From: Escherichia coli
Lineage (GTDB): Bacteria > Pseudomonadota > Gammaproteobacteria > Enterobacterales > Enterobacteriaceae
Length of the DNA stretch: 64,000 bases
NCBI RefSeq assembly: GCF_030013205.1
Contig: NZ_CP122648.1
Direction: 5' to 3' (one strand)
In this document: piece by piece, positions 24,654-55,378 of the stretch
Layout of the letters: every line of letters begins with the position of its first letter
How positions within the stretch are numbered: the stretch's first letter is position 1
Notes under the pieces: model-generated
Told to the model about the DNA's origin: nothing
The model's input: only the letters and a program-made list of their open reading frames with translations
Databases searched by the model: none
Translations under genes and position numbers: made by a program

Positions 24654-26231
24654 ATGACGGAAAACATTCATAAGCATCGCATCCTCATTCTGGACTTCGG
24701 TTCTCAGTACACTCAACTGGTTGCGCGCCGCGTGCGTGAACTGGGTGTTTACTGCGAACTGTGGGCGTGGGATGTGACAGAAGCACAAATTCGTGACTTC
24801 AACCCAAGCGGCATTATTCTTTCCGGCGGCCCGGAAAGCACCACCGAAGAAAACAGCCCGCGTGCGCCGCAGTATGTCTTTGAAGCAGGCGTACCGGTAT
24901 TCGGCGTTTGCTATGGCATGCAGACCATGGCAATGCAGTTGGGCGGTCACGTTGAAGCCTCTAACGAACGTGAATTTGGCTACGCGCAGGTTGAAGTCGT
25001 AAACGACAGCGCACTGGTTCGCGGTATCGAAGATGCGCTGACTGCAGACGGTAAACCGCTGCTCGATGTCTGGATGAGCCACGGCGATAAAGTTACCGCT
25101 ATCCCGTCCGACTTCGTCACCGTAGCCAGCACCGAAAGCTGCCCGTTTGCCATTATGGCTAACGAAGAAAAACGCTTCTATGGTGTACAGTTCCATCCGG
25201 AAGTGACTCACACCCGCCAGGGTATGCGCATGCTGGAGCGTTTTGTGCGTGATATCTGCCAGTGTGAAGCCCTGTGGACGCCAGCGAAAATTATCGACGA
25301 CGCCGTAGCTCGCATCCGCGAGCAGGTAGGCGACGATAAAGTGATCCTCGGCCTCTCTGGTGGCGTGGATTCCTCCGTAACCGCAATGCTGCTGCACCGC
25401 GCTATCGGTAAAAACCTGACTTGCGTATTCGTCGACAACGGCCTGCTGCGTCTCAACGAAGCAGAGCAGGTTCTGGATATGTTTGGCGATCACTTTGGTC
25501 TCAATATTGTTCACGTTCCGGCAGAAGATCGCTTCCTGTCAGCGCTGGCTGGCGAAAACGATCCGGAAGCAAAACGTAAAATCATCGGGCGCGTTTTCGT
25601 TGAAGTATTCGATGAAGAAGCGCTGAAACTGGAAGACGTGAAGTGGCTGGCGCAGGGTACTATCTACCCTGACGTTATCGAATCTGCGGCGTCTGCAACC
25701 GGTAAAGCACACGTCATCAAATCTCACCACAACGTGGGCGGCCTGCCGAAAGAGATGAAGATGGGCCTGGTTGAACCGCTGAAAGAGCTGTTCAAAGACG
25801 AAGTGCGTAAGATTGGTCTGGAGCTGGGCCTGCCGTACGACATGCTGTACCGTCATCCGTTCCCGGGACCAGGCCTTGGCGTTCGTGTTCTGGGTGAAGT
25901 GAAGAAAGAGTACTGTGACCTGCTGCGCCGCGCTGACGCCATCTTCATTGAAGAACTGCGTAAAGCGGACCTGTACGACAAAGTCAGCCAGGCGTTCACC
26001 GTCTTCCTGCCAGTACGTTCCGTTGGCGTAATGGGCGATGGTCGTAAGTATGACTGGGTTGTCTCTCTGCGTGCTGTCGAAACCATCGACTTTATGACCG
26101 CACACTGGGCGCATCTGCCGTACGATTTCCTCGGTCGCGTTTCCAACCGCATTATCAATGAAGTGAACGGTATTTCCCGCGTGGTGTATGACATCAGCGG
26201 CAAGCCGCCAGCTACCATTGAGTGGGAATGA
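24654..26231 (+). CDS. guaA: GMP synthase (glutamine-hydrolysing)
   Basis: 525-aa ORF with GATase cysteine (GVCYGMQ) and PP-loop SGGVDSSV; ends ...ATIEWE. Confidence 0.95.
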
Positions 26232-26233
26232 TT
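26217..26233. repeat. attL core (overlaps guaA stop codon)
   Basis: Exact 17-bp match to 55362-55378. Confidence 0.8.
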
Positions 26234-26277
26234 AACAGCTAACTCATAGCAAATCATTCCTATTCAGATGCCAACTC

Positions 26278-26310
26278 AACCCTCTGTTTTTGCAGAGGGT
26301 TTTTGTTTTT
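26278..26310 (+). terminator. phage-supplied terminator replacing the native guaA terminator
   Basis: Stem ccctctg/cagaggg plus T-run; near-copy of the hairpin at 55403-55434. Confidence 0.55.
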
Positions 26311-26423
26311 ATGTATTCATTTCTATTCACTCTACACCATATTTTTCGGCGGTACAGGTGACGGTATTACCTTAAAGGTATACTCTCATACCGTCATGAA
26401 AATGGTTTCTATACGGGTGAATT

Positions 26424-27674
26424 GTGCTTACCGATACAAAATTAAAAAACCTCAAGCCGCAGGACAAACTGTACAAGGTCTCCGATCGTGACGGGCTGTA
26501 TGTAGCTGTGCTTACGTCAGGCACGGTCTCATTTCGTTATGACTACCGTATCAACGGTCGCCGCGAAACACTGGTAATCGGGCAGTATGGGCGTGACGGT
26601 ATCAGCCTGGCAGAAGCGCGGGAAGAACTGATTGCTGCAAAGAAGCTGCTTAAAGCAGGCCAGTCACCGGCTGCGGCTAAACGTGACGGTATCAAAAAGA
26701 TTCGTGGTGCCGAAACGTTTGCGGTACATACCGACAGTTATATGAAACACGTCATCCTGGCTGAAAGTACCCGCGCAATGAAGCAGGCAGTGATCGACCG
26801 TGACATACTTCCGGTTCTTGGCAACAAAATGATGGCTGAAATTACCACATCGATGGTTCGTGATTTGTGTGACCGGATTGTCGAACGCGGTGGCCGGGCA
26901 ACAGCAGTGCAGGCCAGGGAGATCATCAGCAGCGTATACCGTCACGCCAATGACCGTGGTCATGGTTTGTTTAATCCTGCGGCTGACATTAAGCCTTCGT
27001 CTATCGCCATATTTAAACCACGAGAGCGAACACTGACACCAGAAGAAATTGGCCTGTTCTTCCGCACGTTGGATGCCATTGGTGCTATGGGCACTATGAA
27101 AATGGCTTTAAAACTGGTGCTTATCACTATGGTTCGTAAGGGCGAATTCACCAATGCAACGTGGGATGAAATAGATTTTAAAAAATGGACATGGACAATT
27201 CCTTCAGACCGCATGAAGGGAAGCCGGGCGCATGTTATTTACCTGCCTAAACAGGCTCAGGATATATTGGTCGGGTTGCAGATGTGCGCTGGTGGAAGTG
27301 AATATCTGGTTCCTGGTCGTTACAATTTCCGGAAGCCATTATCTAATGCCGCGCTGAACTCTCTGATCGACAGAACGGTGAAAATAATAAATGAAGATGG
27401 TGAGCATATTCAGGATTTCACCGTACACGATATGCGCCGTACAGCCAGTACGTTGTTGCATGAGGCTGGTTATCCTTCAGACTGGATTGAAAAGGCTCTG
27501 GCACATGAGCAGAAAGGTGTGCGCGCCGTATATAACAAAGCGGAATACGCCAGACAGCGCGCCTACATGTTGCAGCAGTGGGCCGATATGATTGATTCCT
27601 GGATTAACGGGGAGCATACGGATCTGATTCCGTTCTCCCCGTCGAAGTTTGAGAAGTGGATGGCGGGGGAATAA
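26424..27674 (+). CDS. int: tyrosine-type site-specific integrase (P4-like, N-terminal DUF4102-type arm-binding domain)
   Basis: 416-aa ORF (GTG start) with LTDTKLKNLKP...YKVSDRDGLYVAV N-terminus and C-terminal catalytic region (HDMRRTASTLL...AYNK); sits next to attL. Confidence 0.9.
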   Translation: MLTDTKLKNLKPQDKLYKVSDRDGLYVAVLTSGTVSFRYDYRINGRRETLVIGQYGRDGISLAEAREELIAAKKLLKAGQSPAAAKRDGIKKIRGAETFAVHTDSYMKHVILAESTRAMKQAVIDRDILPVLGNKMMAEITTSMVRDLCDRIVERGGRATAVQAREIISSVYRHANDRGHGLFNPAADIKPSSIAIFKPRERTLTPEEIGLFFRTLDAIGAMGTMKMALKLVLITMVRKGEFTNATWDEIDFKKWTWTIPSDRMKGSRAHVIYLPKQAQDILVGLQMCAGGSEYLVPGRYNFRKPLSNAALNSLIDRTVKIINEDGEHIQDFTVHDMRRTASTLLHEAGYPSDWIEKALAHEQKGVRAVYNKAEYARQRAYMLQQWADMIDSWINGEHTDLIPFSPSKFEKWMAGE

Positions 27675-53858: not shown

Positions 53859-54153
53859 GTTTTTTTTGCTTATCACCAATGCAGTTATTTGTACTGGTAT
53901 AGCAATTCGTGTTGTCACATTCCGGCGTAACGGTTCACAACACCGAAGATGGGGAGGGTGGCTTGCTTATTTCCTTATTGTTGCTGCGGCCAGTATTCCT
54001 GTTCGTGTCGTCTATGCAATCTGGTTATGCACGCCAATGGCTGTGGATTTATCTGAGGTCATTATCAACGCTGTCATGCTTGCTGCGGTTCTTAAAACTC
54101 GCGGTAACGTCGTTCAGATTTTCAAAATAACGAGGTCTAAACATGGAGATTAA
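53845..54153 (+). CDS. second holin/antiholin-like membrane protein
   Basis: 102-aa ORF with three hydrophobic segments; overlaps neighbours at both ends. Confidence 0.45.
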
Positions 54154-54772
54154 ACAATTCCAGCGAGCTGCTGGTATTAGCGAGGCGCTGGCCGCACGCT
54201 GGTTCTCGCATATAACTTCTGCTATGAAAGAGTTTGGTATCAGCAAACCAGAAGATCAGGCAATGTTTATTGCTCAGGTCGGGCATGAGTCTGGGGGCTT
54301 CACCAGATTGGAGGAGAATTTCAACTACAGTGTCAGCGGTCTGGCTAACTTCGTTCGGGCTGAGCGTCTCACTCAGGGGCAGGCTAATGCACTGGGTCGC
54401 CGTGCTGGTGAACCACCATTGCCACTCGAGCGCCAGCGAGCGATCGCCAATCTGGTGTACAGCAAACGCATGGGGAACAATTCCCCTGGTGACGGCTGGA
54501 ATTACCGAGGCCGTGGACTTATCCAGATTACCGGTTTGAATAACTATCGTGACTGCGGAAACGGCCTGAAAGTGGACCTGCTGGAGAATCCTGAACTGTT
54601 AGCGCGGGACGAATATGCGGCTCGTAGCGCGGCGTGGTTCTTCTCCAGCAAAGGTTGCATGAAGTATACCGGAGATATTGCACGTGTAACTCTGATTATC
54701 AATGGTGGCAGGAATGGCATCGACGACCGGCGCGCGCGCTATGTCACTGCCAGTAAGGTGCTGGCTGTATGA
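54143..54772 (+). CDS. endolysin, glycoside hydrolase family 19 (chitinase-like) type
   Basis: GH19-like motifs [14 protein letters not shown] and [19 protein letters not shown]. Confidence 0.7.
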
Positions 54773-55251
54773 TCTGGGCATTCGTAAAATCATACTGGAA
54801 ACAGTTACTTATCATGGCGGTGCTTGCTGTTCTGGCCATATCCGGAGTTGTTGCCTGGAGTGTACACGGCAGTCGTCAGTACGACGCCGGGTATGCACAG
54901 GCGAAAGAAGACCGCAAAACCGAAGATGAGAGAGTTCGTCAGCACTACGAACAGGAGAAAGCGATCAATGAACGTGAAGCGCAGCAGAGGATCGACCAGG
55001 CGCGCAATGATGCTCTTGATGCTGCCGCTCGCACTGGCCGGTTGCAGCAACAGCTCGTTGCCATCCGTGAGCAGCTCAGGCACTATAACGCCATTGTCGG
55101 CGCTGGGTCGTCAGCCGCAGACACCGGAGTTTTGCTTGCCGACGTGCTCAGCAAATCTCTCGAGAGAAACAGACAACTGGCAGAGTATGCTGACCGGGCA
55201 GCCGAAGCCGGAAGAGTCTGCGAAACACAGTACGACACCCTGACCAGATAG
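54769..55251 (+). CDS. i-spanin (Rz-like)
   Basis: N-terminal TM followed by coiled-coil region; directly after the endolysin. Confidence 0.6.
54968..55243 (+). CDS. o-spanin (Rz1-like lipoprotein) embedded in +1 frame of the i-spanin
   Basis: [26 protein letters not shown] lipobox then Pro-rich sequence, inside the 54824..55243 track ORF. Confidence 0.5.
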   Translation: MNVKRSRGSTRRAMMLLMLPLALAGCSNSSLPSVSSSGTITPLSALGRQPQTPEFCLPTCSANLSRETDNWQSMLTGQPKPEESAKHSTTP

Positions 55252-55361
55252 CATGGCATTTTTTATGGTACTGATTTCCGGTGACGGTATATAAAACGGT
55301 ACGGGAAAAATTCATCTTTGGAAAAATGTTATCACTCAATTGGTTATGGTATCCGTAAATA

Positions 55362-55378
55362 ATTGAGTGGGAATGATT
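55362..55378. repeat. attR core
   Basis: Exact 17-bp match to 26217-26233. Confidence 0.8.

Follow-up and report, generated by a model that had tools for sequence, protein, structure and literature searches.

Phages that integrate at the 3′ ends of tRNA genes or other genes carry a replacement 3′ end, so that the target gene stays intact (Campbell-type insertion). The 3′ end of guaA is a well-documented integration hotspot, used by GIsul2 and other islands (PMC9376610, PMC5704250). For phage vB_EcoP_ZX5 (hereafter ZX5), attgagtgggaatgatt was identified as attP, located 190 bp upstream of the integrase gene int, and as attB at the guaA 3′ end; the ZX5 attB, attL and attR were checked by polymerase chain reaction and Sanger sequencing, and the same sequence was stated to be the proven attP of phages phiV10 and epsilon15 (PMC9782041). 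In the work of Smyshlyaev et al., the epsilon15 integrase groups with integrases that all insert at the 3′ flank of guaA (PMC8138268). The TL-2011b prophage has also been reported inside guaA. Here, we analyzed a 64,000-nucleotide stretch of Escherichia coli DNA (contig NZ_CP122648.1 of assembly GCF_030013205.1; hereafter the window), in which the interval 26217–55378 is very probably a defective Uetakevirus (phiV10/epsilon15-type) prophage, integrated by its own P4-like tyrosine integrase at the guaA 3′ end through recombination of attP with attB. The attachment site and the target gene are already known, because the core and the guaA target have been published for ZX5, phiV10, epsilon15, TL-2011b and the integrase cluster, and the element is thus an ordinary member of a known phage genus in a published site.

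Attachment cores and the uninterrupted guaA-yfgI junction

The exact 17-mer ATTGAGTGGGAATGATT was found at both ends of the interval, and the repeat is exactly 17 bp long because the bases next to the two copies differ. No further copy was detected in the window even with up to two mismatches allowed, and two or more matches occurred in none of 100 shuffles. The features of the site are as follows:

24654–26231, + strand: guaA (GMP synthase), 525 aa, with its last four codons and stop within the attL core (open reading frame; RefSeq annotation of the near-identical ETEC4079 region)
26217–26233, + strand: attL core ATTGAGTGGGAATGATT (repeat; prophage-free homology stops at 26233; published attP/attB core)
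55362–55378, + strand: attR core (exact repeat)

The left copy reads ATT GAG TGG GAA TGA (I-E-W-E-stop), the in-frame end of guaA. This confirmed the original prediction, made from the letters of the sequence, that an exact repeat at both ends marks an insertion into the guaA 3′ end with a 17-bp core that keeps the GuaA C-terminus. A synthetic empty junction of 371 nt, consisting of the left flank, one core and the right flank, was matched to 5426 complete E. coli genomes. It was recovered at 100% identity and without gaps in many chromosomes, across annotated guaA and yfgI, and was uninterrupted at one place in 4463 of the 5426 genomes, with its halves separated in about 960. The attL junction (26080–26423) was found over at least 80% of its length in 567 genomes of the same collection; in the other genomes shown, the match ended at query position 154, which corresponds to window position 26233, the last base of the core. 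The reference junction coincided exactly with the repeat, placing the insertion point where the original prediction had put it.

The free phiV10 genome carries a single 17-mer, at 26720–26736, between Rz/Rz1 and int, and the spacing between the core and int in the window is 190 nt (26234–26423). Recombination by Int would join this attP to an attB made of the last four guaA codons, the stop and two further bases, and GuaA is left unchanged because attP carries the same 17 bp. In less identical hosts the phage provides the last codon and the stop: the native Klebsiella guaA, seen in a prophage record with host flanks, ends in ...ATT GAG TGG GAG TAA, its identity to attP is only 11 bp, and guaA of the Klebsiella lysogen therefore ends with the phage-supplied GAA TGA. 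We also inspected core-type inverted repeats around the core; their spacings of 18–21 nt do not suit the canonical 6–8-bp overlap region, and no claim is based on them.

The interval matched phiV10, EC.W1-9, O157 typing phage 9, phiv142-3, TL-2011b and ZX5 at ~96–98% identity over about half its length. Its membership in Uetakevirus was supported by phiV10, EC.W1-9 and typing phage 9, which covered 53–56% of 23.8 kb at ~97% identity, by collinear blocks with phiV10, and by an attP of the type found in this genus, with the core between Rz and int, ~190 bp upstream of int, and attB at the guaA 3′ end. These nucleotide matches, the gene order and an integrase identical to phiV10 Int at 414 of 416 residues bore out the phiV10/epsilon15-like assignment that had been proposed for this guaA prophage.

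A phage-carried counterpart of the guaA terminator

Each junction is followed by a hairpin, and the one downstream of attL had been predicted to mimic the native guaA terminator, which now lies beyond attR:

26278–26311, + strand: phage-supplied intrinsic terminator, stem 26278–26301 followed by TTTGTTTTTA, 44 nt past the core and now following guaA (folds; phiV10/epsilon15 annotation; homology to the native hairpin; conservation in 10 sequences)
55403–55430: native guaA terminator between convergent guaA and yfgI, now after phage Rz and still facing yfgI (folds; same stem at the native Klebsiella site)
55471–56010, − strand: yfgI, the right-hand host flank (open reading frame; empty-site match; RefSeq)

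The phage hairpin folded as predicted into a 10-bp stem with a 4-nt loop and the tail TTTGTTTTTA (−16.5 kcal/mol, z −5.1), and the native hairpin into a 12-bp stem (−17.8 kcal/mol, z −7.0). Terminator scans identified each of them as the sole terminator-like site in its region, and the G+C-rich stem-loop followed by a U-run that defines intrinsic terminators was present. Local alignment of the P′ arm (the phage DNA that follows the core at attL) with the native right flank picked exactly the two hairpins, AACCCTCTGTTTTTGCAGAGGGTTTTT and AACCCTCTGTTACTACAGAGGGTTTTT, which are identical at 24 of 27 positions; the alignment score of 39 compared with 15.8 ± 2.3 in shuffles and was reached by none of 2000. 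Core and hairpin are 44 nt apart in the phage and 27 nt apart in the host, and these two spacers share no homology. The phage hairpin was conserved in all 10 aligned attP/attL sequences, from phages of E. coli, Salmonella, Enterobacter and Klebsiella, with rare stem changes that keep G-U pairing, and both the phiV10 and epsilon15 records annotate it as a rho-independent terminator. Comparison of the native guaA terminators of E. coli (from the window) and Klebsiella (from the flank of the prophage record) revealed a CCCTCTG/CAGAGGG stem in Klebsiella as well. Judged from these alignments, the guaA 3′ end of enterobacteria has a diverged copy in the phage.

In both recombination partners the terminator lies on the same side of the core, so that the two are exchanged upon recombination. 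In the lysogen, guaBA transcription would end at the phage hairpin, before the co-oriented int, and transcription of the phage lysis operon would end at the native hairpin, which also faces the convergent yfgI.

Integrase and candidate arm-type sites

The integrase gene and the putative arm-type sites are:

26424–27674, + strand: int, tyrosine integrase with arm-binding, central and catalytic domains (Pfam; identity to phiV10 Int)
26358–26397: candidate P′ arm-type Int site pair, direct GTGACGGTAT at 26358–26367 and inverted one-mismatch ATACCGTCAT at 26388–26397 (invariant in 10 phage sequences; offset shared with distant elements)
26592–26604, + strand: arm-type motif copy in int, CGTGACGGTATCA, codons R-D-G-I (longest invariant run; epsilon15 integrase-binding annotation)
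26682–26694, + strand: second arm-type motif copy in int (conservation; epsilon15 annotation at the homologous position)
55281–55301, + strand: P arm-type site block GTGACGGTATATAAAACGGTA (invariant in 9/9 aligned phage attP; epsilon15 integrase-binding annotation)

Pfam searches assigned residues 2–87 of Int to PF13356, residues 113–190 to PF22022 and residues 204–375 to PF00589, the last with a near full-length match (model positions 3–170 of 172). The N-terminal domain matched the solved arm domains of CP4-like integrases (PDB 3ju0, 3jtz). This three-domain layout and the insertion at the guaA 3′ flank place Int in the IntSXT subgroup/epsilon15 cluster of P4-like, guaA-targeting integrases.

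The original prediction had pointed to GGTGACGGTAT in both arms as a possible integrase arm site, and this sequence is indeed present at 26357–26367 and 55280–55290. Its 10-mer GTGACGGTAT occurs in five exact copies in the 64 kb, compared with ~0.1 expected, starting at 26358, 26593, 26683 and 55281 on the + strand and at 26936 on the − strand; with one mismatch allowed, none of 100 shuffles reached the observed count. The copy at 26936–26945 was rejected as an arm site, since it is not conserved and probably reflects chance. The GenBank record of epsilon15 contains four 10-bp "protein_bind: integrase" features at 26651, 26873, 27108 and 27198 with the sequence GTGACGGTAT; they are spaced 222, 235 and 90 bp apart, exactly as the window copies at 55281, 26358, 26593 and 26683 are in the reconstructed attP. 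The same record annotates integration host factor sites, RNase III sites and the terminator. Thus, the predicted arm site agrees with the epsilon15 annotation and is conserved.

Conservation of the putative sites was assessed across the phage sequences. The P arm block GTGACGGTATATAAAACGGTA was invariant in all nine phage attP, the tenth sequence being an attL with host DNA on that side, and TGACGGTATTACC of the P′ arm was invariant in 10 of 10 sequences, with variable non-coding DNA adjacent to it. Among nine int sequences, 32 of 159 synonymous third positions were invariant (a 20% background), and the longest invariant run in 660 nt of int was CGTGACGGTATCA at 26592–26604, with GACGGTAT at 26685–26692 among the next longest. 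At Int residues 57–60, encoded at 26592–26604, we also observed that the G-R-D-G-I stretch has a two-residue insertion relative to CP4-like domains (GQYGRDGISLAEAR versus GVYP--AVSLADAR), and the first int-internal DNA motif coincides with this clade-specific loop insertion. In a subset of elements from Alphaproteobacteria and Gilliamella, GACGGTAT was found at the same offset from the core end (+126/+127), and most of the alphaproteobacterial ones also had an inverted ATACCGTC at ~+165 and a further direct copy at ~+191. The arms of these distant elements are otherwise unalignable, and their Int proteins are 46–51% identical.

As far as these alignments extend, the conservation of GTGACGGTAT in sequence and position reaches far beyond this phage genus, and the comparative data lend strong support to a functional arm-type site that Int would bind. 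The sites on which Int would assemble are a single GTGACGGTAT in the P arm, two in opposite orientation in the P′ arm and two more within the 5′ part of int. The int-internal sites, which are predicted in the epsilon15 record, may be bound by Int and may have a regulatory role. A further conjecture, which we consider rather unlikely, is that the GACGGTAT site at ~+127 with an inverted partner ~30–40 bp on would be an ancient trait of the guaA-targeting integrase clade, from Alpha- to Gammaproteobacteria, and that the P′ arm of Uetakevirus would have been shortened, two sites now falling in the part of int that encodes the arm-binding domain. If true, binding of Int to its own coding sequence could give int autoregulation or an unusually extended intasome of ~530 bp.

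Stepwise deletions in the prophage

Counted with both att cores (26217–55378), the element measures 29,162 bp, compared with 39,104 bp for phiV10. Local blastn comparison left phiV10 39045–39104 together with 1–6905, 7652–9587 and 9689–10977 without a counterpart in the element, and located three junctions and a scar region:

Junction 36990/36989: joins phiV10 39045 to 6905, with loss of terS, terL, portal, protease and the 5′ two-thirds of the capsid gene (local blastn)
Junction 37736/37734: joins phiV10 7652 to 9587, with loss of the 3′ part of gp11, gp12-14 and the 5′ part of tail gene gp15 (local blastn)
Junction 37836/37834: joins phiV10 9689 to 10977, with loss of an internal part of tail gene gp15 (local blastn)
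36711–38391, + strand: deletion-scar region with four pseudogene fragments, a gp55-like regulator, the major capsid 3′ end, the Bbp16 cement protein and a tail protein 3′ end (blastn against phiV10 and ETEC1748; PHROGs; RefSeq)

All PHROG matches within 36.7–38.4 kb were partial (regulator, major head protein, Bbp16-like and tail protein). A complete packaging and head/tail module would comprise terS, terL, portal, protease, major capsid and tail adaptor/tube genes, which here are absent or fragments. Because packaging, head and several tail genes are deleted or fragmentary, the prophage is defective. The "virion gene set" of the original prediction stood in part: blastn, PHROGs and RefSeq confirmed the internal virion proteins and the tail spike, whereas terS, terL, portal and protease are deleted and the capsid/tail genes reduced.

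The order of the deletions could be read from related enterotoxigenic E. coli (ETEC) genomes. The window is 99.995% identical over 40 kb to the pig strain ETEC4079, with one substitution and one single-base indel (39247 and ~47109) relative to its RefSeq chromosome, in which four pseudogenes are marked at the scar region. In the sister pig strain ETEC1748 (NZ_CP122719) this prophage occupies the identical site, its flanks agree as well, down to an IS1-disrupted gene beyond yfgI, and the identity is 100% outside the deletions. The ETEC1748 copy retains terS, terL, tRNA-Arg, a truncated portal gene and the full capsid gene, and 6.4 kb of the DNA missing from the window are still present there. 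Compared with ETEC1748, the window lacks a further 5,094 bp and 1,290 bp through two deletions with 2–3-bp microhomology at the junctions; relative to phiV10, the two share older deletions of 1,708 and 1,937 bp, and these older head/tail-module deletions are common to five sister genomes. Between the window and ETEC1748 (14629–22693 of its region) no other difference was seen across ~35 kb, and the near-clonal Belgian pig ETEC genomes record a stepwise decay of the prophage.

After integration, at least four illegitimate deletions removed the packaging genes, the head genes and part of the tail genes, and virions can no longer be made. The genes kept are int, a candidate excisionase, the repressor, the anti-repressor, the replication, RecET and lysis genes, along with both att cores. 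Residual excision of the prophage may persist.

Alternative explanations

Transposition likewise leaves direct repeats around insertions, and the 17-bp repeat could be the target-site duplication of a transposase-type insertion, or a product of homologous recombination, in place of attL/attR. This is vanishingly improbable: the 17-mer is already present once in empty chromosomes and, because free phage genomes also carry it once beside int, it is attP and not a target-site duplication; the element is without a transposase; and the integration of ZX5 and its att junctions were verified experimentally (PMC9782041). An intact, inducible phiV10-like prophage able to make virions, which was implicit in the original "virion gene set", is likewise very hard to sustain. 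Genes of the left arm, the lysis cassette, the tail spike and the internal virion proteins have been kept, mostly at 88–99% identity to phiV10 or EC.W1-9, but a 29.1-kb element stands against a 39.1-kb phage, terS, terL, portal and protease are missing, the capsid, cement and tail genes are fragments listed as RefSeq pseudogenes, and the sister strain retains 6.4 kb of the missing DNA. At the level of sequence, the intact-prophage reading is refuted.

The likeness of the two hairpins may be convergent, the real role of the phage hairpin being internal to the phage, where it would end late lysis transcription and insulate int, with replacement of the guaA terminator a by-product. All free phage genomes indeed have the hairpin between Rz and int, where it is annotated as a terminator, and intrinsic terminators are short and compositionally alike. 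We nonetheless consider convergence somewhat unlikely, as the identity includes stem and flanks (AACCCTCTGTT...CAGAGGGTTTTT, 24/27; 0/2000 shuffles), the stem is shared by the native E. coli and Klebsiella sites, which argues for common descent, and the two roles are compatible, the geometry being expected to keep both transcription units terminated after recombination. For GTGACGGTAT, chance or coding coincidence could account for the copies, above all for those inside int, both of which encode R-D-G-I with preferred codons, and a literature search with the motif and "integrase" returned only unrelated primer matches. Coincidence is nevertheless improbable given five copies where ~0.1 are expected, all at att/int, non-coding P and P′ copies that are invariant amid variable flanks, a motif whose orientation and offset recur in the unalignable arms of elements with Int only 46–51% identical, third codon positions fixed in the int-internal copies against the 20% background, and an Int that has an arm-binding domain. 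Some points do weigh against our reading of a decayed, Int-integrated prophage with a swapped terminator. The terminator geometry is read from the sequence, and it is from there that we infer termination in vivo, Int binding and excision. Part of the int-internal conservation could be coding constraint, because R-D-G-I is encoded in common codons, and the motif copy at 26936 lacks conservation. Each strain is represented by a single assembly, so that the deletions could in principle be assembly errors; countering this, the same pseudogenes appear in the RefSeq annotation and the older deletions in five sister genomes.

Other prophage genes and host flanks

The remaining prophage genes are arranged as follows:

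27678–32167, − strand: early-left operon with DUF1382, MT-A70 methyltransferase, PerC, an AlpA-like helix-turn-helix protein (candidate excisionase), RecT, a RecE-like nuclease, two small open reading frames and the repressor (31583–32167) (phiV10 synteny 97.8%; RefSeq names)
32322–36718, + strand: early-right genes for DnaT-like, replication protein P, DUF1064, Ea22-like and NinX-like proteins (blastn; PHROGs; RefSeq)
38388–46832, + strand: internal virion/ejection proteins (gp16-gp20 homologues, including an 898-aa SLT transglycosylase) and a 186-aa open reading frame (PHROGs)
48307–49230, − strand: anti-repressor (BRO-N/Ant; ant 48307–49044) with C4 antisense RNA (49048–49135) and isrK (49154–49230) directly upstream (PHROGs; Rfam)
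50598–52967, + strand: tail spike/fibre with a conserved N-terminus and a divergent receptor-binding part (PHROGs; blastn)
53454–55251, + strand: lysis cassette with a membrane protein, holin, GH19 endolysin and Rz/Rz1 (blastn; RefSeq)

Upstream of ant, Rfam scored the C4 antisense RNA at 78.6 bits and isrK at 74.7 bits, a P1/P7-like antisense-controlled ant module inside a phiV10-type prophage. The region 46000–50400, between the virion genes and the tail spike, has a low GC content (41–46%) and encodes proteins of 186, 288, 69 and 242 aa without functional names, the 242-aa protein having a Lar-like/endonuclease VII-like zinc-finger C-terminus. Searches with PADLOC and NCBIfam of the low-GC cargo open reading frames (46.3–50.4 kb and 35.0–36.7 kb) gave no matches, so that no defence or moron function could be named for them.

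Beyond yfgI, IS1 interrupts a glycine-zipper (yfgH-like) gene (~56026–57320 and beyond, RefSeq-derived positions), and pdeF, further right, is frameshifted in the sister-strain annotation. On the left, an adhesin island between der and xseA (10119–21521, + strand) contains sinH (intimin-like inverse autotransporter, 735 aa), sinI (325 aa) and a ratA-like gene (2680 aa), and corresponds to the Salmonella CS54-type island. The small RNA sroE (4859–4950, + strand) is in its usual place between ispG and hisS (Rfam, 116.6 bits).

The guaA 3′ end as a target, and comparison with known systems

When a genome collection was scanned with the 17-mer, at least 120 loci were returned, spread over widely different taxa; the native E. 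coli and Salmonella sites were not among the matches listed. About 100 of the 120 listed matches have the 17-mer as the in-frame guaA end (...KPP(A/G)TIEWE-stop), and the core thus sits on an almost universally conserved guaA C-terminus. Among the same 120, 37 matches from other taxa have an Int homologue, mostly 45–58% identical, which in most cases starts 190–320 nt downstream of the core. The exact E. coli-type 17-mer also ends guaA in GC-rich Alphaproteobacteria and in Clostridia among the matches listed. An integrase often comes next, or else arm-like repeats with a hairpin, a pattern suggesting that the guaA 3′ end is replaced by the version that each integrated element brings along. Arm families among these matches number at least three: GACGGTAT, TCTGGCA (GIsul2-like) and GGCAAC (Clostridia).

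As a discovery the locus carries little weight, its site, target, terminator and candidate integrase sites being already in the literature or in GenBank and the same junction being present in about one of ten complete E. coli genomes. It is a clean case of a phage that targets a protein-coding gene and carries the last codons of that gene and a copy of its terminator, both transcription units being predicted to stay terminated. The near-clonal pig ETEC set captures successive steps of prophage deletion, and the comparative evidence puts the predicted arm sites on a firmer footing and defines attP for a widespread guaA-targeting integrase clade.

phiV10 (NC_007804) and the element share the position of the attP core, between Rz and int, and the terminator that comes after it; the phiV10 left arm, from int to DUF1064, is 97.8% identical to the element over 9 kb, and the gene order is shared. 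In contrast to phiV10, the element is without terS, terL, portal, protease, most of the capsid gene, gp12-14 and parts of gp11 and gp15, has no O-acetyltransferase gene (oac), and differs in the distal tail spike and the Ant/C4/isrK region. Epsilon15 (NC_004775) resembles the element in its core, hairpin position and the four GTGACGGTAT positions, and differs by its ~84% identity in the attP region, its Salmonella host and its intact genome. ZX5 (MW722083; PMC9782041) has the same 190-nt spacing between core and int, but is a viable 39.6-kb phage with spontaneous induction, unlike the defective element.

The guaA islands (GIsul2; the epsilon15/CMGI-3 integrase cluster, PMC8138268) likewise have an integrase gene after the core in the same orientation, and differ in their non-phage cargo of integrative and conjugative elements, integrative and mobilizable elements, and resistance islands. 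The GIsul2 core GAGTGGGA lies within the 17-mer, so the target is shared, whereas GIsul2-like P′ arms have TCTGGCA-type repeats and a hairpin of their own in place of GACGGTAT. A GIsul2-type island was accordingly rejected as an identity for the element, whose phage gene content contrasts with the repA/repC, trbL, ars and CR2-sul2 backbone, the target site alone being shared. Compared with integrators at gene 3′ ends in general, the target here is protein-coding, and the duplicate consists of four codons and the stop, followed by a non-homologous spacer and then by the copy of the terminator.

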